A stretch of 5,842 bases of DNA from Escherichia coli. GTDB taxonomy: Bacteria; Pseudomonadota; Gammaproteobacteria; Enterobacterales; Enterobacteriaceae. The DNA lies in the NCBI RefSeq assembly GCF_003334405.1, contig NZ_QOWM01000032.1. One strand, given 5' to 3'. The notes beneath the pieces were generated by a model. That model did no database searches and was not told the DNA's origin. It saw nothing but the letters and a program-made list of their open reading frames with translations. Made by a program: the position numbers and the translations under genes. Below are positions 1-5,842 of the stretch, one piece after another. Numbering within the stretch: the stretch's first letter is position 1; each line of letters opens with the position of its first letter.

Positions 1-1824
1 GCTGTTATGCTTGTTGCGGCATGGTTTGCAGGTTCATTTATTTTCTTTGTGCTTTACTTCAGCCAGATAAAGAATCTGAAACCATTGAAGGCTGTGTTCA
101 GATCCATTGATGCGTACAGGATGGATATTTTTACAGACAGCCTTACTTTATCTGTTGTGACTACGGATATCAGAGTTTTAGCCTTTGTTGCACTTGGAGC
201 AGGATTTGTCGTGTCTCTTATCATCCCTGTTGCGGCGTTGATAAAACTGAACGAGAAGAAAGAAAATATTTTCGGTGATGCGCGATTTGCGACAATTAAT
301 GATATTCGTGAGTCTAACAGTTTCACGCTTGACGGTGACGAAAAAGACGGGATTATCGTTGGTATAAAAGATAAGAAAATCATACGCTATGTGGGAGCAG
401 CATTCAGTGCTATGGGAGCCGGAACAAGGGCTGGTAAAGGTGCTGGTATAGTCATCACTAATCTTATGAAGTACTGGTGGAGTGTTATTATTCTCGATCC
501 AAAAAGGGAGTGTTTTAATATCACCAGTCTTATCAGGAAGGTGATTTTAGGTCATGAGGTTTATAAATTTGATCCCTTTAGTCCGGTAACGCACCGCTTT
601 AACCCTTTGTATTATGTCAGCATGGGAACGAGTGAAGGTTTTAATCAGCTTGAAAATCTTGCGTTGATTATTTACCCCTATAATACAGATGGTGCGGATG
701 CTGGTAGCTATCTTAATAAGACGGCGGGTGGTGTTTTTAAATCTTATGCTGTCGCTTTATGGTTTATGATTAAGAATGATAAGGCTGGACTAAAAACGCT
801 TGATATTGAGCCTGTCTTCTCAATGTCTAAAATTAATCAGCTTTTTGAGCGTGCAGAACCCGAACATCTTCTTTCATTCATGAATGATATTCGTTCAGAA
901 TTAAGGGGGAAAGACAAAACGCTTGCTGATATTGGTGTCGCTGGGCTTAAGGCATTCATTGAGATGGAGGATAAAACAAAAGCACAACTCAAAAGCAACT
1001 TTCTTAATGGATTATCACCGTTTGCTAACCCTAATGTGGCAAATGCTACTGATGGAAATGATTTTGATTTGCGGCAGGTGCGGAAAAAGCGGATGACAAT
1101 TTATTTCTGTATTTCTGGTGATAATGCCAGGTTGGCTGAAAAAATAACAAATATTTTCTTTCAGCTTGCTATACAGGTGAATCTTGAAAAGATGCCAACG
1201 GATGATCCGGAAATAAAGCATGACTGCCTTTTTCTACTGGATGAATTCCCGTCAATTGGTGCTGTAGATTACATCAAGAGTAAATCTGGTCTCATTGCTG
1301 GTTACAAGCTGAAATTGTTGATTGTTTACCAGGTCGGCTCTCAGCTTGAGGAAATCTACAGTTATGCAGGCAGTAAAACATTACTGGCAAGTGCACCCTG
1401 CAAAATTGTTTATTCCGCTTCTGATGTTAAAGATGCGCGGGAGTTATCAGAAGCGATGGGGACACGAACAGTAACTATCGGTTCGAAAAGCAAAAGTCGT
1501 AGTCGTGGAGGAACATCGAGATCTGAATCAGAAAGCCTTATTGAGCGTCCACTGGTAACAACAAATGAACTACTTACACTGAAATTTAGTGAAGAAATCC
1601 TGGCAATGAAGGGAGAAAACCCGATTCGTTGTGAAAAGGCATTTTACTATCTCAATGAGTATTTCTTTGGTGATTTTGTGAAGGTTGCTCCGGAACTTGC
1701 AAACATTTTCCCCAGGAAGAAAGGAAAGCTGGTTATGCCTCCACAGAAAGTATTTGAAAATGAAATCGTCGCAAAAGGGTATCTGGCAGTAAAAGATGTT
1801 CCTGATCTCGATAAAGCGGCGTAA
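1..1824 (+). CDS. virD4: Type IV secretion coupling protein (VirD4/TraG family ATPase), 5'-partial. The ORF is open to the window edge in frame 1 and the listed Met at nt 7 is probably internal.
   Basis: Two N-terminal TM helices (LVAAWFAGSFIFFVLYF and IRVLAFVALGAGFVVSLIIPVAALI) separated by a loop, as in VirD4. Walker A GAGTRAGKGAGIVITNLM then WSVIILDPKRE. Walker B-like CLFLLDEFPSIG. Length >605 aa against about 650 aa for VirD4, so the true start is probably a few tens of codons upstream. Stop TAA at 1822-1824. Confidence 0.9.
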   Translation, partial: AVMLVAAWFAGSFIFFVLYFSQIKNLKPLKAVFRSIDAYRMDIFTDSLTLSVVTTDIRVLAFVALGAGFVVSLIIPVAALIKLNEKKENIFGDARFATINDIRESNSFTLDGDEKDGIIVGIKDKKIIRYVGAAFSAMGAGTRAGKGAGIVITNLMKYWWSVIILDPKRECFNITSLIRKVILGHEVYKFDPFSPVTHRFNPLYYVSMGTSEGFNQLENLALIIYPYNTDGADAGSYLNKTAGGVFKSYAVALWFMIKNDKAGLKTLDIEPVFSMSKINQLFERAEPEHLLSFMNDIRSELRGKDKTLADIGVAGLKAFIEMEDKTKAQLKSNFLNGLSPFANPNVANATDGNDFDLRQVRKKRMTIYFCISGDNARLAEKITNIFFQLAIQVNLEKMPTDDPEIKHDCLFLLDEFPSIGAVDYIKSKSGLIAGYKLKLLIVYQVGSQLEEIYSYAGSKTLLASAPCKIVYSASDVKDARELSEAMGTRTVTIGSKSKSRSRGGTSRSESESLIERPLVTTNELLTLKFSEEILAMKGENPIRCEKAFYYLNEYFFGDFVKVAPELANIFPRKKGKLVMPPQKVFENEIVAKGYLAVKDVPDLDKAA

Positions 1825-1835
1825 AGGAGAACATG

Positions 1836-2255
1836 ATGAAGAAATTAGTGGTTTTATTGATTTCCATTCTTGCTGGTTGTTCATCACCGCCAGAGCCAAC
1901 ACCCGTGCAGTTTGAAAAGGCAAATGAAGTGATCAATCCCTCATTGCCATATGTCCCCGATTTTCACGGTGTCATAAAGTCAGACGTTAGCGGTAAAGGA
2001 TGGGTTTATGAGATCACTTCCTTATCCGGAGTACAGGCCAGAACGCCGACGTTTTATTACGCTCTGGCTCATGCGGACAGGATTGTAGTGACAACACATG
2101 ATGCTGGGCTGTGGTTTCGAATCAGAGATCTGTTGAAGATGGAAGGGGCAACAGCAGTCGTGGAATGGCGAAACGAGAAAAGTTTTTTACCTGAACAGGG
2201 AAAAATAGTTTTCATTAAAGCACAAAACGAGGTGAAAAATGACTGGAAAAAATAG
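1836..2255 (+). CDS. Small lipoprotein (about 139 aa), predicted outer-membrane lipoprotein. Possibly an entry-exclusion (Eex/TrbK-like) factor, given its position directly after the T4CP.
   Basis: SD AAGGAG at 1824-1829, tandem ATG ATG at 1833/1836, with spacing favouring 1836. Signal peptide MKKLVVLLISIL with lipobox LAGC, then Ser at +2, so no Asp inner-membrane retention signal. Function is inferred only from small size, lipoprotein nature and synteny with the VirD4-like gene. Confidence 0.72.
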   Translation: MKKLVVLLISILAGCSSPPEPTPVQFEKANEVINPSLPYVPDFHGVIKSDVSGKGWVYEITSLSGVQARTPTFYYALAHADRIVVTTHDAGLWFRIRDLLKMEGATAVVEWRNEKSFLPEQGKIVFIKAQNEVKNDWKK

Positions 2256-2544
2256 AGTGGTTTTACCTGCCTTGCTGGCGTTAGGATTAATATCAATAAA
2301 TGCTAATGCCGCTGATCCCTGTAAATCTGTTTTTTGTCTTTATGGTAAAGCTGTCGGTAGTAGTGGAGGGAGTGAGTGCAGTAGTGCCGAAAAGGATTTT
2401 TTTAAAAATGTTGAAAAGAAAAAGGGGAAAATCCGCTGGAGTAAAACATTTGATCTCCGTAAAGGTTTTTTAAATCAGTGCTCAACGGCAGACCCGGCGG
2501 CAATCTCTCTGATCATGAGTAAGTTTGGTAAGATTAAGGGGTAG
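2239..2544 (+). CDS. Small secreted (periplasmic) Cys-containing protein, 101 aa, unknown function.
   Basis: SD GAGGTG about 6 nt upstream. Start overlaps the previous gene's 3' end by 17 nt (coupled). Classic Sec signal MTGKNRVVLPALLALGLISINANA|AD with AXA cleavage site. Four Cys in the mature part (possible disulfides). Lys/Gly-rich. Confidence 0.62.
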   Translation: MTGKNRVVLPALLALGLISINANAADPCKSVFCLYGKAVGSSGGSECSSAEKDFFKNVEKKKGKIRWSKTFDLRKGFLNQCSTADPAAISLIMSKFGKIKG

Positions 2545-2549
2545 ATGAT

Positions 2550-2807
2550 ATGAAAAAAAAAGAAAAGTTTGATTTTCTGAATGCAATAAAAGCAGGGCAC
2601 TCTGGCGTAATAACTGGTAATCCTGCTCATGCATTGGATGATAAGACTATGAACGCCATCATTCATAACTACGTGGCAACGATTGTGCCCGGTAAAGCAG
2701 GTAACTGCAAAGAAACTCCTCTCACAAAGTATTGTTCGAGGACTATGCCAGAGCGTATTTCAGTTGAAGAAATTAATGAGGTTAAAATTTATCCAGAATT
2801 CTTCTGA
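2550..2807 (+). CDS. Hypothetical protein, 85 aa, no signal peptide.
   Basis: SD AAGGGG 2536-2541, 8 nt before ATG 2550, 5 nt after the upstream stop. ORF begins ATG AAA AAA AAA GAA AAG. No recognisable motif. Confidence 0.5.
   Translation: MKKKEKFDFLNAIKAGHSGVITGNPAHALDDKTMNAIIHNYVATIVPGKAGNCKETPLTKYCSRTMPERISVEEINEVKIYPEFF
2553..2561. repeat. A9 homopolymer tract immediately after the start codon of the 85-aa ORF.
   Basis: Read directly: atgaaaaaaaaagaaaag. Nine consecutive A, encoding KKK. Confidence 0.9.
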
Positions 2808-2826
2808 ACAGAGATAAATGTAAACG

Positions 2827-2860
2827 CCGCAGATTCCAGATTTTAATCTGGAATTTGCGG
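2827..2860 (+). terminator. Stem-loop: 15-nt arms, 4-nt loop. Possible partial intrinsic terminator, RNA processing or stability element, or operator-like inverted repeat between two gene blocks.
   Basis: ccgcagattccagat-ttta-atctggaatttgcgg. The arms are complementary except for one G/A mismatch in DNA, which is a G-U wobble in RNA. It lies in the only >50 nt intergenic gap (2808-2888). There is no clear U-tract downstream on + (ggggttgaacaacc). The opposite strand has a weak T-rich run. Confidence 0.45.
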
Positions 2861-2888
2861 GGTTGAACAACCGAAGGGCGTTAGTTTT

Positions 2889-3323
2889 ATGATGAATAAA
2901 TTTAGTTATGTCAATCGTATGCTTCGGCAAGTTTTTGTTTTTAGTTTTATCACGGCCCCATCAATATCTTTATTTGTTGTTTTTATGTTTTTTTCGTTTA
3001 ATAACTCAATTGCTGGTTCATTTTTAAAAGAGGCCAGGGGGCTTATAACCGATACTCCTTCTGATAAGGTTAACGTCTGTCTTTTCGAAAAGGGCGTACC
3101 ACAGGATATGGAGTTGACAAACTCCACAACTGAACATGTATTAAAAAATAAATGTATAACAACGTTAGTTGATGCTGCTGACTGGCAGGAATCTGTTGAC
3201 GGTTCTATTCGATATTTTTATTGGTCGTCAGTTGTTATTGGCTTTGTGGTCTGGTTTACCTTTAATTTTTGTGCACTGGAAGAACTATTTTATCGTAGAA
3301 ACAGAAAAGGAGACGTTGAATGA
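2889..3323 (+). CDS. Inner-membrane protein with two TM helices flanking a roughly 70-aa predicted periplasmic domain. Translationally coupled partner of the downstream nuclease.
   Basis: ATG ATG at 2889/2892 with AAGGG 10-13 nt upstream. TM1 VFVFSFITAPSISLFVVFMFFSF preceded by positive residues (N-in). TM2 YFYWSSVVIGFVVWFTFNFCAL followed by RRNRK. Stop TGA overlaps the nuc start (ATGA at 3320-3323). Confidence 0.68.
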   Translation: MMNKFSYVNRMLRQVFVFSFITAPSISLFVVFMFFSFNNSIAGSFLKEARGLITDTPSDKVNVCLFEKGVPQDMELTNSTTEHVLKNKCITTLVDAADWQESVDGSIRYFYWSSVVIGFVVWFTFNFCALEELFYRRNRKGDVE

Positions 3324-3835
3324 GGATTTTTTTAAGCGTAATTTTATTCCTGTTTACTGCTTTTCAGTCTGCAAATGCAGGTGGAATACCTGGTGCTTTA
3401 GCAGGAATACTTTCTACATTAAACCAGGAAATCCAGGGGAAAGTTATTCGTGTTCTCGATGGCGATACCATCGAAGTTTTACAGGACAAAAAGCCCGTCA
3501 GGATTCGCCTGGCAAACATCGATGCACCGGAGAAAAAACAGGCTTTCGGGCGCTGGTCAGCAAATCAGCTTAAAGCTCTGCTTGCAGCACAGCCTGTTAC
3601 GGTGACGTACACGCAGACAGACCGCTACGGACGCATTATCGGTCATGTGTTCACGACGAACGGCACGGATGCCAGCCGCTTTATGGTTCAGTCTGGCGCT
3701 GCATGGGTATATGAACGTTACAACGTGGATGAGTCATTACCGGCTCTACAACGGGAAGCGCAGGAACAAAAACGCGGTTTGTGGGTCGATGCAAATCCGG
3801 TTCCACCGTGGGAGTGGCGATACAAACATAACTAA
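3320..3835 (+). CDS. nuc: Exported thermonuclease (staphylococcal nuclease / SNase fold) with Sec signal peptide.
   Basis: SD AAGGAG 3307-3312, 7 nt from ATG. Signal MRIFLSVILFLFTAFQSANA|GG. SNase hallmark motifs align to S. aureus nuclease: VIRVLDGDT, RIRLANIDAPE (compare RLLLVDTPE), DRYGR (compare DKYGR), and C-terminal GLWV (compare NIWS). Confidence 0.92.
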   Translation: MRIFLSVILFLFTAFQSANAGGIPGALAGILSTLNQEIQGKVIRVLDGDTIEVLQDKKPVRIRLANIDAPEKKQAFGRWSANQLKALLAAQPVTVTYTQTDRYGRIIGHVFTTNGTDASRFMVQSGAAWVYERYNVDESLPALQREAQEQKRGLWVDANPVPPWEWRYKHN

Positions 3836-3850
3836 CTGATAGAGGTTTTT

Positions 3851-4255
3851 ATGGCTTTATCACCCAAAGAAAAGAAAGAGTTACAACAACGCTTCGAAAA
3901 GCAATTACTACCTGACCTTGATATGTCATTTGAACTAAATGGCGAAGTATATAAATTTAATTTTGATAAAAATGAGTCAGGTGACTATATCGATAGTTTT
4001 ACACAAGCAGTATGGGGAGGTTATCAGGATGCCGAGGAATGGGAAAAATATGGTAAACATCAGGAGACAGAATTACCTGAATACCCTGAACCAGTCGAGG
4101 GTTGGTGCGACTGTGATAAATGTAAGTCGATGATTTTTCATAAAGAGAAAAATATTTATGTTTGCCTCTCCTGCCATAAACAAACAGAGCCATTTCTTCC
4201 AATTGACTGGAACTCAAACGATTACGATTGGCTACCTTATGAAGATGAATACTAA
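3851..4255 (+). CDS. Strongly acidic small protein (134 aa) with a C-terminal zinc-ribbon-like Cys cluster. Function unknown.
   Basis: SD AGAGG 3841-3845, 5 nt from ATG. About 30 Asp/Glu against about 14 Lys/Arg, net about -16. Motif WCDCDKC...(15 aa)...CLSCH, i.e. CxCxxC...CxxC. Acidic C-terminal tail DYDWLPYEDEY. Confidence 0.68.
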   Translation: MALSPKEKKELQQRFEKQLLPDLDMSFELNGEVYKFNFDKNESGDYIDSFTQAVWGGYQDAEEWEKYGKHQETELPEYPEPVEGWCDCDKCKSMIFHKEKNIYVCLSCHKQTEPFLPIDWNSNDYDWLPYEDEY

Positions 4256-4315
4256 TGCTGAATACTTCACAGTCATAATGGATGAAATGGCGACATAAGC
4301 ATTAAGGAGGCAAAA

Positions 4316-4528
4316 ATGAATGATTGGCTCTGTTCTTTACATGATTTAATCACAAATCCTGTATTTATGCTGTCTTTTTCAGTTTTTTGGGTGTCTACGG
4401 GAACACTTTTAATCAGAACTGTATTCAGAAAAATTAACATATCTGAAATTTGCATACTTTTTTTATTATTGACACTAATAATTCTGTCTTTATGTATTTT
4501 TGTAACATTAAAAGCTTCTTTTAACTAA
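4316..4528 (+). CDS. Small membrane protein, 70 aa, two predicted TM helices.
   Basis: Perfect SD AAGGAGG 4304-4310, 5 nt before ATG 4316. Hydrophobic stretches VFMLSFSVFWVSTGTLLI and ICILFLLLTLIILSLCIFV. Basic segment RTVFRK between them. Confidence 0.55.
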   Translation: MNDWLCSLHDLITNPVFMLSFSVFWVSTGTLLIRTVFRKINISEICILFLLLTLIILSLCIFVTLKASFN

Positions 4529-4571
4529 AAGCAGCCACTAAAGACAAATCAGATACTTTTTGAGGGTTATT

Positions 4572-5147
4572 ATGCAATATGCATTGTTTGATGGATTTGA
4601 ACGAAAGTTTTTGCTGGATGCTCTTGAATTTGGTGTTCTGAAGGACTGGAAAGAAAATCCGGTAAAAGAACTTCCTGATATTGATGAATCTGTTCACCCC
4701 TTCCATGTCTGCTATGGTGGATATTTATTAAATCCTGGTGTTTCAGATTCAGATATTAGCAGAAAAATAAAAGACCAGACAGGATTCTGGCTGGCAGCTA
4801 TTGATGATACCCGCATGGATTGTCATTCAATAGCTTATTATGATATTCACACACTCCCTCTGATTTCGTGTGGACATCAAAAGATAGTTCCTTTTGCAGC
4901 GTTAATAAAAGCTGATGAATGCATCATTTCTAAAATTTCTGCGTATTCTGGTTTTGCCGTAACAGCCTTTTTGAGAATTAAAGACCAGGATATTGCAATT
5001 AATATACTTAACCGTGAAGGAATTTTTGCCTTTAATGGCTGTGAACGCAGGTTCAGACAACCTGTAGGTGAAGATAACTGGAAACAGGCAGTGTCAGAAG
5101 AACGTGCTATTCGCTGTGCAAACAGACTAATTCAGTGTAAAGGATAA
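4572..5147 (+). CDS. Hypothetical Cys/His-rich protein, 191 aa from ATG 4572. The ORF track's 4560 start is a TTG, which is less likely.
   Basis: SD GAGGG 4562-4566, 5 nt before ATG 4572 (MQYALFDGF...). Stop TAA 5145-5147, only 4 nt before the topB start, whose SD lies inside this gene's 3' end. Scattered His/Cys: HPFHVCYGG, MDCHS, ISCGHQK, NGCERR, IRCANRLIQC. No family recognised. Confidence 0.68.
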   Translation: MQYALFDGFERKFLLDALEFGVLKDWKENPVKELPDIDESVHPFHVCYGGYLLNPGVSDSDISRKIKDQTGFWLAAIDDTRMDCHSIAYYDIHTLPLISCGHQKIVPFAALIKADECIISKISAYSGFAVTAFLRIKDQDIAINILNREGIFAFNGCERRFRQPVGEDNWKQAVSEERAIRCANRLIQCKG

Positions 5148-5151
5148 CAAA

Positions 5152-5842
5152 ATGAGACTTTTTATCGCAGAGAAACCCGCAGTAGCAAATGATATTGTTA
5201 AGGCACTTGGAGGCAATTTTACCCGCCATGATGGCTGGTTTGAAAGTGATAACGCAATTGTGACTAACTGTTTTGGTCATATTATCGAATCACAGCCACC
5301 GGAAAACTATAATCCCGAATACAAAGCCTGGAAGGTTGAAACGCTTCCTTTACGTCTTTATCCCGTGAAGTATCAGCCTGTTGAAAGTGCAGCAAAACAG
5401 GTTAAAACGATTCTCGAACTTATCAGACGTGGAGACGTGACTGAAATTGTTCACGCTGGCGATCCTGATGATGAGGGACAGCTACTTGTTGATGAAGTCC
5501 TGGAATATGCCGGCAACACAAAACCCGTAAAGCGCGTTCTGATTAACGACAACACGCTTCCGGCAGTGAAAAAGGCGCTGGCAAATCTTAAAGATAATCG
5601 TGATTTCAAAGGGCTTTACCTTAAGGCGCTGGCGCGTTCAGTTGCCGATGCCGTCTATGGCTTCTCCATGACGCGTGCTTACACCATTCCTGCAAAAGCC
5701 AGAGGATATCAGGGCGTTCTGTCTGTCGGGCGCGTCCAGACTCCCGTTCTTGGCCTGATTGTGAATCGTACCCGTGCTAACCAGAACCATAAATCCAGTT
5801 TTTACTACACCATGACCGGAGTTTTTCAGCGTGGTGCTGATG
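5152..5842 (+). CDS. topB: DNA topoisomerase III (type IA), 3'-partial. The N-terminal TOPRIM domain is present and the ORF runs off the window end.
   Basis: SD AAGGA 5140-5144, ATG 5152. Translation [19 protein letters not shown]...[20 protein letters not shown]...[19 protein letters not shown] is near-collinear with E. coli TopB ([19 protein letters not shown]...[20 protein letters not shown]...[19 protein letters not shown]). Open to the window end in frame 1. Confidence 0.93.
   Translation, partial: [230 protein letters not shown]

Follow-up and report, generated by a model that had tools for sequence, protein, structure and literature searches.

The interval between the gene of a VirD4-like coupling protein and topB in this stretch of Escherichia coli DNA (5,842 nucleotides, hereafter the window) is filled by a run of small genes, and the question it raises is whether these genes form one system or several pieces placed side by side. 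An earlier note had read them as an accessory cargo module inserted in a conjugation backbone, perhaps an undescribed system centred on a periplasmic nuclease. The window is identical over its whole length (5842/5842 nt, 100% identity) to the E. coli plasmid NZ_CP070012.1, which is typed as IncX4 with a MOBP relaxase and an MPF_T transfer system. The gene order of this plasmid is virB2...virB11-taxB-[block]-topB-hha-hns, and the synteny running from pilX1-11 through taxB and the interval to topB, hha, and hns is annotated in L001 and repeated in three other IncX4 plasmids. Both proposed flanks were confirmed, taxB by Pfam (RefSeq product label, "relaxosome-coupling protein TaxB") and topB by RefSeq; the 5' end of taxB is cut by the window, with its true start 39 nt upstream. 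The block is an already-sequenced taxB-topB stretch of an IncX4 resistance plasmid and a composite of known backbone. The plasmid of the window carries a rarer mosaic, with only five records at least 99% identical.

Table 1. Features of the taxB-topB interval and its flanks (window positions)
Feature	Position	Strand	Basis or remark
taxB, VirD4/TraG-type coupling protein	7..1824	+	Pfam T4SS-DNA_transf, E 3e-94; upstream flank
140-aa outer-membrane lipoprotein, CagT/VirB7-like (probable Cag12 family)	1833..2255	+	lipobox LAGC; structural match to CagT, Pfam score below cut-off
101-aa secreted TrbM/Pep/KikA-family protein, equivalent of R6K "TivB12"	2239..2544	+	Pfam TrbM; 17-nt overlap with preceding gene
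85-aa soluble basic protein	2550..2807	+	confined to IncX4-like plasmids
20-bp stem-loop	2823..2864		inverted repeat, 90% complementarity; in the 81-nt gap, the sole sizeable one between genes
144-aa membrane protein, two predicted TM segments	2889..3323	+	hydrophobic segments ~14-46, 112-134
171-aa secreted staphylococcal-nuclease-type (thermonuclease) enzyme	3320..3835	+	Pfam SNase PF00565, E 6.7e-24
134-aa cytoplasmic protein, acidic (pI 4.4), with a zinc-ribbon-like Cys/His cluster	3851..4255	+	orphan family
70-aa small hydrophobic protein, two predicted TM segments	4316..4528	+	unannotated in RefSeq
191-aa soluble protein	4572..5147	+	4 nt upstream of topB
topB 5' part, type IA topoisomerase	5152..5842	+	RefSeq; downstream flank, with hha and hns next on the plasmid

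All open reading frames of the block lie on the plus strand, as had been described, but they number eight and not nine, the ninth having no support of any kind. RefSeq annotates seven of the eight, omitting the 70-aa frame. The junctions from taxB to topB measure +8, -17, +5, +81, -4, +15, +60, +43, and +4 nt, in keeping with the short or overlapping junctions noted before, and a Shine-Dalgarno-like sequence precedes every frame. GC content within the block ranges from 31% to 52%, and a terminator scan predicted no plus-strand terminator there. Envelope targeting and signal peptides were judged by inspection and a Kyte-Doolittle scan, which bore out the claim that at least five products are envelope targeted: five of the eight (the 140-, 101-, and 144-aa proteins, the nuclease, and the 70-aa protein) are predicted to be so. 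The nuclease is not the only product that can be named, as the earlier note had held, since the first two genes can be assigned to the Cag12/CagT and TrbM/KikA/MpfK families, making three nameable products.

Tight co-directional packing, mostly envelope-targeted products, and the lack of a predicted plus-strand terminator favor the view that the whole block is a single envelope-associated system, built around the nuclease and inserted as one cargo unit. The comparison with relatives makes this scarcely credible. Alignment of the interval, which the earlier note had suggested, revealed a variable slot: other IncX4 plasmids with 96-98% identical flanks lack, or carry a replacement for, each of the segments 2530-2726, 2888-3427, 3820-4545, and 4280-4545, so that the genes of the 85-, 144-, and 70-aa proteins and of the acidic zinc-ribbon protein are individually swapped or missing. 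The content between trbM and topB also differs in IncX1, in IncX3, and in a Providencia plasmid, and includes a SMEK-domain gene, an AAA-type ATPase, and DUF6012. The components are distributed independently, with record counts among 72,556 plasmids of 2257 for the Cag12-like protein, 296 for the 85-aa protein, 171 for the 144-aa protein, at least 5000 for the nuclease, 313 for the acidic protein, 138 for the 70-aa protein, and 1203 for the 191-aa protein. IncF and MPF_I plasmids carry the nuclease but none of the other block genes. IncX1 pOLA52 and the Providencia plasmid lack the nuclease yet keep the first two genes (both of known T4SS accessory families), and the last gene is tied to topB in IncI2. 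This mosaic content and the discordant distributions point to a composite of known backbone and leave a single nuclease-centred system unsupported. Of the cargo proposal, the variable slot stands for IncX4, IncX1, IncX3, and the Providencia plasmid, but the single insert does not, because the first two genes are transfer-system accessory genes conserved across IncX and the last travels with topB-hha. Since the interval does not consist of nine core genes that are conserved universally and have functions assigned to them, the cargo and system idea is weakened rather than formally refuted. We consider it fairly probable that the interval represents the distal section of the backbone that serves conjugation and maintenance in IncX4, assembled from three parts with separate histories rather than forming one system.

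The first of these parts (1833-2544) would supply the PilX type IV secretion system with two accessory components, and the two genes follow the coupling-protein gene in IncX1, IncX3, IncX4, and the Providencia plasmid. The 140-aa protein is predicted to combine a lipobox cysteine with a CagT-like globular fold; a conserved CSSPPEP motif follows the lipobox, and the globular domain lies at the C terminus. Its score against Pfam PF13117 (Cag12) is 20.0 bits for a cut-off of 22.7 (E 9.7e-4), and all 14 aligned IncX homologues match this family, the best with an E value of 2.8e-12. The lipoprotein would decorate the outer-membrane core complex of the PilX system. An EexN-type entry-exclusion lipoprotein was also considered for this gene and rejected, as an NCBIfam Eex search gave no match; the EexN-family lipoprotein gene of the plasmid sits elsewhere, upstream of pilX1, in agreement with PMC8725589.

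The 101-aa protein scores 23.8 bits against Pfam TrbM (cut-off 21, E 5.1e-5). It presents a hydrophobic N terminus with a predicted signal peptide ending NANA/AD, and its cysteines C28, C33, C47, and C81 are invariant across six IncX-type homologues. An N-terminal Sec signal peptide and four conserved cysteines forming two disulphides are the hallmark of the TrbM/Pep/KikA family, of which RP4 TrbM raises both conjugation and T4SS-dependent killing and pKM101 Pep is surface located (PMC13311141). TivB12, the TrbM homologue of R6K (IncX2), did not complement RP4 (PMC13311141), so a TrbM-like role in IncX is assigned by analogy. On this family analogy, the disulphide-stabilised secreted protein would stabilise mating contacts at the cell surface.

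In IncX4, taxB and trbM belong to the PixR-activated pilX operon, and for a close IncX4 relative, RT-PCR and RNA-seq together with a single transcription start site established that pilX, taxB, and trbM are co-transcribed (PMC8725589). The qtrbM primer of that study maps to positions 2375-2397 of the window. The earlier claim of co-transcription with the conjugation backbone holds for the first genes of the block on this published RT-PCR, start-site, and RNA-seq evidence, and the Cag12-like and TrbM-like genes would be transcribed as the tail of the pilX-taxB operon. The transposon screen in the same study names 18 transfer-essential genes (10 pilX genes, taxA, taxB, taxC, tsxA, cds4, cds9, cds10, and cds16), and primer mapping places cds4 and cds16 outside the window. 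Judging from the list in the available text and from this mapping, the genes of the taxB-topB interval appear to be absent from the named set. The screen covered transfer between laboratory E. coli strains only and would therefore miss roles in other hosts or in exclusion, competition, and defence. The Cag12-like and TrbM-like products would improve transfer yet be non-essential in the laboratory.

The stem-loop that follows the 85-aa gene has a predicted RNA fold of -34.9 kcal/mol (z = -5.6), and none of 200 shuffled sequences folded as well. It was missed by the terminator scan because it has no T-run, and it is possibly a 3' boundary, attenuator, or stabiliser of the pilX-taxB-trbM transcript. 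The hairpin was counted in favor of the composite, as lying at the boundary between its first and second parts.

The second part (2550-4528) would be a recombination-prone slot of independently exchangeable small genes, including that of the acidic zinc-ribbon protein and those of two orphan small proteins. The 85-aa protein, whose gene is replaced in one IncX4 plasmid of the comparison (L004), has an N terminus weakly resembling the VirB11 His-box, and BLASTP against the plasmid's own VirB11 gave E values of 0.004-0.018. Its assignment as a VirB11 ATPase was rejected, as TIGR02788 matched only residues 1-28 with 22.3 bits against a cut-off of 249.95 (E 5.6e-5). The 134-aa protein contains 30 aspartates and glutamates versus 14 lysines and arginines, together with the conserved motif CPEP..GWCDCxKC..H..CLxCHKQTEP, and has only 22 matches among 1.84 billion representative proteins. 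Its NCBI name, "exodeoxyribonuclease V subunit beta," is unsupported by Pfam, NCBIfam, PHROGs, and PADLOC. In plasmid L003, a 119-aa gene and DUF6012 take its place. Of the 138 records for the 70-aa protein, only seven match over the full length.

That these small frames (those of 85 and 70 aa and perhaps the acidic one of 134 aa) are remnants in decay or mere fillers without a function is very improbable. The VirB11-like fragment of the 85-aa frame and its replacement in some plasmids would fit such a fate, but the protein is 85-94% conserved across about 200 plasmids. The 70-aa frame is unannotated, AT-rich (its region, at 31% GC, is the lowest in the window), and missing from most IncX4 plasmids, including typical ones; against decay, it has a consensus AAGGAGG 5 nt before its ATG, and an intact 68-aa homologue with 51% identity directly follows the nuclease in L003. 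The acidic protein keeps its Cys/His motif at 32-47% identity, and Shine-Dalgarno sites precede all of these frames. The 70-aa frame is probably a real gene.

The nuclease matches PF00565 with 84.8 bits (cut-off 21), and its DGDT, RLANIDAPE, and DRYGR motifs align to the catalytic and Ca-binding motifs of the Staphylococcus aureus enzyme (D21, R35, D40, E43, and R87). Inspection places the end of its signal peptide at SANA/GG. The IncX gene has been named "putative nuclease parB" (PMC4207749), and the plasmids that carry homologues include IncF, IncI2, and IncX3. The stop codon of the 144-aa gene overlaps the start of the nuclease gene (ATGA). A 38% identical homologue of the 144-aa protein likewise precedes the nuclease in an IncX3-type plasmid, and an I-type tra cluster encodes a 36% homologue between traF and the gene of the dotD/traH lipoprotein. 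An unrelated TM protein of 102 or 108 aa takes this position before the nuclease in IncX4 and IncX3 plasmids of the typical kind. Identification of the 144-aa frame as F-type TraP was rejected (Pfam, 13.4 bits versus 25; NCBIfam, 15.3 bits versus 177). The small membrane protein would be translationally coupled to a Sec-exported, Ca2+-dependent, non-specific nuclease degrading DNA in the periplasm or outside the cell. Both IncX3 and IncX4 show this pairing of a membrane protein and a nuclease, the stop codon of one gene overlapping the start codon of the other, which leaves room for a two-gene functional unit within the slot.

The same pairing bears on a different reading of the slot at 2550-4528, as a hotspot in which functions of competition gather (exclusion, defence, or anti-defence, for example). 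The membrane protein, secreted nuclease, and 70-aa protein would then form an envelope barrier that destroys incoming foreign DNA, and the strongly acidic protein would be a counter-defence factor of the DNA-mimic or inhibitor type. Consistent with this, the trbM-topB slot is variable and holds genes of conflict-linked kinds in relatives (the SMEK-domain, AAA-type ATPase, and DUF6012 genes), in both IncX3 and IncX4 the gene of a small TM protein runs into the nuclease start, a position that the 38% homologue keeps, and a homologue of the 70-aa protein comes right after the nuclease in L003. The nuclease also matches the candidate SNc+LTD among the PADLOC-DB defence models (E 3.3e-14); however, this match is to the generic SNase domain, and the other seven of the eight block proteins matched none of the models, so the defence functions suggested in the earlier note find nothing in PADLOC beyond that domain. 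The nuclease occurs in at least 5000 plasmids and lacks these partners in IncF and MPF_I contexts, and both the 144-aa and 70-aa proteins are absent from typical IncX4 plasmids. The gene order relative to taxA and taxC suggests late entry into the recipient, unlike that of known leading-region anti-defence genes. A competition hotspot is thus unlikely, and the composite backbone remains the preferred reading.

In this composite, the third part begins at 4572, from where the 191-aa protein would move with topB-hha(-hns), a DNA-topology and silencing module recombining among IncX4, IncX1, and IncI2. The ATG at 4572 is the correct start, all homologues beginning MQYAL. The gene lies upstream of topB in about 1000 IncX4 and IncI2 plasmids, and the arrangement with topB and hha is found in IncI2 also. 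The first 230 aa of TopB are 100% identical to TopB of IncX1 pOLA52, whereas TaxB is just 40% identical. A confident predicted model of the 191-aa protein found no match among solved structures. It is quite improbable that this protein is a dedicated partner of the plasmid topoisomerase III, that the membrane protein, SNase, and 70-aa protein form a minimal envelope nuclease module, or both. If true, the 191-aa protein could target TopB to transferred or replicating plasmid DNA or regulate it, and the module would act on incoming DNA, such as competing plasmids or transforming DNA.

The closest structural match of the 140-aa protein, a probable member of the Pfam Cag12 family, is CagT (Cag12) of Helicobacter pylori, likewise a lipoprotein but far longer. 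The proline-rich segment past the lipidated cysteine is shared with the VirB7-like lipoproteins that bring a globular domain to the T4SS outer-membrane core complex. Besides this lipoprotein, whose gene is missing from the published transfer-essential list (PMC8725589), a canonical short VirB7 (PilX7, L001 6811-6939) is encoded on the plasmid. Like TrbM (RP4 and R751), Pep (pKM101), KikA (R388), and TivB12 (R6K), the 101-aa protein has a Sec signal, four disulphide cysteines, and a small helical domain, and its gene closes a P-type T4SS cluster. Like TivB12, the protein is a bare core domain and lacks the C-terminal extension.

Plasmid-borne periplasmic nucleases include RP4 ParB (SNase family) and pKM101 Nuc (phospholipase-D family). 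Like these, the block nuclease is secreted and non-specific, is encoded at the margin of a region for transfer or stability, and appears dispensable for transfer, and it has the SNase fold and catalytic residues of ParB-type enzymes. It differs in lying outside any parCBA resolution operon, in not being homologous to Nuc, and in being coupled in translation to the 144-aa membrane protein. IncX and IncI2 plasmids share the topB-hha-hns (Sfx-type) "stealth" module. In IncX4 and IncI2, the gene of the 191-aa protein, which has no known domain or fold, stands 4 nt before topB, with hha following. IncX1, IncX3, and the Providencia plasmid lack this gene, and their topB is preceded by other genes or by none on that strand.

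The whole interval corresponds to the IncX4 backbone of pHNSHP23 and other mcr-1 IncX4 plasmids (Yi et al. 2022, PMC8725589), with the same order pilX-taxB-lipoprotein-trbM-...-nuclease-...-topB-hha-hns and conserved parts 96-100% identical in DNA. Compared with the usual IncX4 backbone, the window carries a 144-aa TM gene in place of a 102-aa one, a nuclease with a diverged N terminus, an extra 70-aa gene, and a trbM allele that is only 84% identical.

Megablast against 72,556 plasmid records, of which 1452 matched in this whole-window search, showed the window to match NZ_CP070012.1, a 32.6-kb E. coli plasmid typed as IncX4, MOBP, and MPF_T, with 100% identity across the full 5842 nt. In the annotation of this plasmid, virB2...virB11 and taxB are followed by seven small genes, after which come a type IA topoisomerase gene, hha, and a gene for an H-NS homolog. 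On its locus (L001), the window starts at position 10690, and the true start of taxB precedes the window by 39 nt. The block at positions 1825 to 5151, between taxB, encoding the VirD4-like coupling protein, and topB, belongs to the known, previously annotated backbone of IncX4 and does not represent a hidden new system. The earlier note had counted nine small co-directional genes in it; the shared direction and tight packing were borne out, but the number was not, as eight plus-strand ORFs were found, seven of them covered by the RefSeq annotation.

Genes of the taxB-topB interval and its flanks (window coordinates)
Feature	Position	Strand	Remark
taxB	7-1824	+	upstream flank
140-aa gene (gene 1, Cag12-like)	1833-2255	+	
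101-aa gene (gene 2, TrbM-like)	2239-2544	+	
85-aa ORF	2550-2807	+	
144-aa gene	2889-3323	+	
171-aa nuclease gene	3320-3835	+	
134-aa acidic protein gene	3851-4255	+	
70-aa ORF	4316-4528	+	not in RefSeq annotation
191-aa gene	4572-5147	+	
topB	from 5152		downstream flank

From taxB to topB, the junctions measure +8, -17, +5, +81, -4, +15, +60, +43, and +4 nt, and a Shine-Dalgarno-like sequence stands before each start codon. By inspection and hydropathy scanning, five products have export or membrane signals (one has a lipobox, two have signal peptides, and two contain a pair of hydrophobic segments), in agreement with the proposal of at least five envelope-targeted products. A consensus scan of the window for promoters and terminators retrieved fewer sites than shuffled sequences and no plus-strand terminators, and Rfam (E values up to 1) and tandem-repeat scans found nothing relevant.

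Alignment of the window with three other IncX4 plasmids (L002, L003, and L004) confirmed that the interval holds a variable slot. L002 is about 96.5% identical to positions 1-2887 and 4546-5842, whereas it has other sequence in place of 2888-3427 (the 144-aa gene and the N terminus of the nuclease) and lacks 4280-4545 (the 70-aa gene). L003 carries a 119-aa gene and DUF6012 in place of 3820-4545, and in L004 positions 2530-2726 are replaced. The genes that stay constant across the IncX groups are limited to taxB and the Cag12-like and TrbM-like genes at one end and topB, hha, and hns at the other. Between these ends, the IncX1 plasmid pOLA52 (NC_010378) has one reverse-strand SMEK-domain gene, IncX3 has genes for a 108-aa transmembrane (TM) protein, the nuclease, and a 420-aa ATP-binding protein, and an IncX3-type plasmid of K. 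aerogenes encodes two TM proteins, the nuclease, a 257-aa protein, DUF6012, and a 131-aa protein. The GC content inside the block swings from 31% to 52%. Plasmid records number 2257 for the Cag12-like gene (444 at 95% identity or more; tblastn), 296 for the 85-aa ORF, 171 for the 144-aa gene, at least 5000 for the nuclease, 313 for the acidic 134-aa protein, 138 for the 70-aa ORF (only 7 full length), and 1203 for the 191-aa protein.

These widely differing counts speak against the suggestion that the block constitutes a system centered on the nuclease. The nuclease is a clear SNase-family enzyme (Pfam E value of 6.7e-24) with a signal peptide, and its catalytic and calcium-binding motifs align with those of the S. 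aureus nuclease. Homologs were found in IncI2, IncX3, and IncF plasmids and in one MPF_I plasmid. The order is finO-ANR-nuclease-hha in pO157 (IncF) and pil genes-nuclease-PcfJ-DUF6012 in the MPF_I plasmid; none of the other block genes occurs in these IncF or MPF_I examples, a further argument against a nuclease-based system. What does recur, in IncX3 and IncX4, is a local link in which the start of the nuclease gene is overlapped by a small membrane protein gene. A 38% identical homolog of the 144-aa protein holds the same position before the nuclease, and the family is also represented between traF and the dotD/traH lipoprotein gene of an I-type tra cluster, so that the 144-aa protein looks like a conjugation-associated membrane protein. 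This protein and the 102/108-aa TM protein are not alleles of one gene, as they are dissimilar and coexist in one IncX3-type plasmid. Literature searches on the "EcnA" nuclease, plasmid thermonucleases, the RP4 ParB nuclease, and Cag12 lipoproteins in conjugative plasmids yielded nothing usable.

The acidic 134-aa protein (pI 4.4) carries the conserved motif CPEP..GWCDCxKC..H..CLxCHKQTEP, and a search of 1.84 billion representative proteins yielded just 22 relatives. Its database name, "exodeoxyribonuclease V subunit beta," was rejected as label propagation without family-model support. The 70-aa ORF is preceded by a consensus AAGGAGG ribosome-binding site and encodes two TM segments; an intact, 51% identical homolog lies directly 3′ of the nuclease in L003 (about 4385-4588). 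The 85-aa ORF is confined to IncX4-like plasmids. Its first 28 residues (2550-2633) weakly resemble the VirB11 His-box (TIGR02788, E value of 5.6e-5, far below the cutoff) and may be the relic of a virB11 fragment or a chance likeness.

Both in IncX4 and in IncI2 (96% identity), 4 nt separate the 191-aa gene from topB downstream of it; distant homologs occur in Bacillus plasmids, where a topB is two genes away, and in Vibrio plasmids, with no topB nearby. The protein has no family match in Pfam, NCBIfam, PADLOC, or PHROGs. Its structure is predicted with confidence (pLDDT of 90, pTM of 0.88), and the model, which has no significant match in the PDB, may represent an undescribed fold. The frequent database name "DNA topoisomerase III" was discarded, being again a propagated label that no family model supports. 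The first 230 residues of TopB (window 5152-5841) are 100% identical to those of pOLA52 TopB (L005, the IncX1 locus, 8890-9579) and 91% identical to IncI2 TopB (L008 6581-7270), whereas TaxB shares only 40% identity with the pOLA52 protein; in the same comparison, TrbM is 68% identical and the adjacent lipoprotein 35%. Such unequal identities point to repeated recombination and imply that the topB-hha(-hns) module was exchanged recently between plasmid groups. The nuclease, hha, PcfJ, DUF6012, the 191-aa protein, and topB appear in varied combinations at the distal ends of transfer regions in IncF, IncI2, MPF_I, and IncX plasmids (e.g., L014 3001-3717 in pO157 and L008 3545-4057 and 8815-9021 in IncI2), suggesting that enterobacterial conjugative plasmids share a pool of "tail" genes.

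Co-transcription of the block with the transfer genes, as the earlier note proposed, holds for its start: in PMC8725589, RT-PCR primed at the trbM 3′ end places taxB and trbM within the pilX operon. There, Yi et al. found one PixR-dependent start site, located upstream of cds9, and PixR overexpression induced 15 genes, including taxB, trbM, and the unnamed cds6. Their transposon screen lists 18 transfer-essential genes (10 pilX genes, taxA, taxB, taxC, tsxA, cds4, cds9, cds10, and cds16). The gene numbers of pHNSHP23 (MF774184) were placed by mapping the published primers onto this plasmid: cds4 and cds16 fall outside the window, primer qtaxB falls inside taxB, and qtrbM-F falls at 2375-2397 with three mismatches. 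By this mapping and the list in the paper's text, none of the named essential genes is within the taxB-topB interval. By position, cds6 corresponds to the Cag12-like or the 85-aa gene. Just one gap is of appreciable size (2808-2888); it contains a 20-bp stem-loop (2823-2864; -34.9 kcal/mol, z = -5.6 versus shuffles, without a T-run) that is conserved in other IncX4 plasmids and divides the pilX-operon part from the mosaic part; it may be a transcript end or processing site. Upstream of the window, pilX1, which encodes the VirB1-like lytic transglycosylase, is interrupted in its 3′ part by an IS1 element (L001 about 500-1270) that lies between the EexN/PixR-side promoter region and pilX2 and could be polar on the whole pilX-taxB-cag12-trbM operon in this particular plasmid. 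Downstream of hns, a DinQ-like type I toxin gene, dqlB (L001 19388-19483), may be the toxin gene tsxA named as transfer essential in PMC8725589.

Rather than one cargo module, the block is best seen as three juxtaposed parts, as follows: a pair of T4SS accessory genes, a slot prone to recombination that holds optional small genes, and the 191-aa gene with its link to topB-hha-hns. Because IncX4 plasmids count among the principal vehicles of the colistin resistance gene mcr-1, their backbone content matters for understanding and blocking their spread. The 191-aa topB neighbor, the nuclease-paired membrane protein, and the acidic zinc-ribbon protein are uncharacterized yet common enough for experiment.

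The two accessory genes show that the nuclease is not the only nameable product, and the CagT-like lipoprotein and TrbM-like protein that they encode probably help transfer. RefSeq names gene 1 a Cag12-family protein; its Pfam Cag12 score (20.0 bits) is just below the curated cutoff (22.7), and all 14 aligned homologs from IncX1, IncX3, IncX4, and a Providencia plasmid match the model (best E value of 2.8e-12). These homologs share an invariant lipobox cysteine followed directly by SSPPEP. In most of the matches listed, either the coupling-protein gene or virB11 immediately precedes gene 1; a single 128-aa gene intervenes in the Providencia plasmid. The IncX4 plasmid also encodes a canonical short VirB7 (PilX7), and gene 1 is read as an additional VirB7/CagT-like outer membrane component of the transfer machine, within which we infer its exact place. 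An entry exclusion role was rejected, as an EexN-type lipoprotein is encoded elsewhere on the plasmid. Gene 2 scores above the Pfam TrbM cutoff (23.8 versus 21 bits) and has a signal peptide and four cysteines, invariant across six IncX-type homologs, the combination that a 2026 study gives as the hallmark of the TrbM/Pep/KikA family (PMC13311141). In that study, RP4 TrbM boosts conjugation and T4SS-dependent killing, and pKM101 Pep is described as a surface adhesin. The R6K (IncX2) homolog, named TivB12, did not complement RP4 and, like gene 2, consists of the core domain only (TivB12 domain content from PMC13311141).
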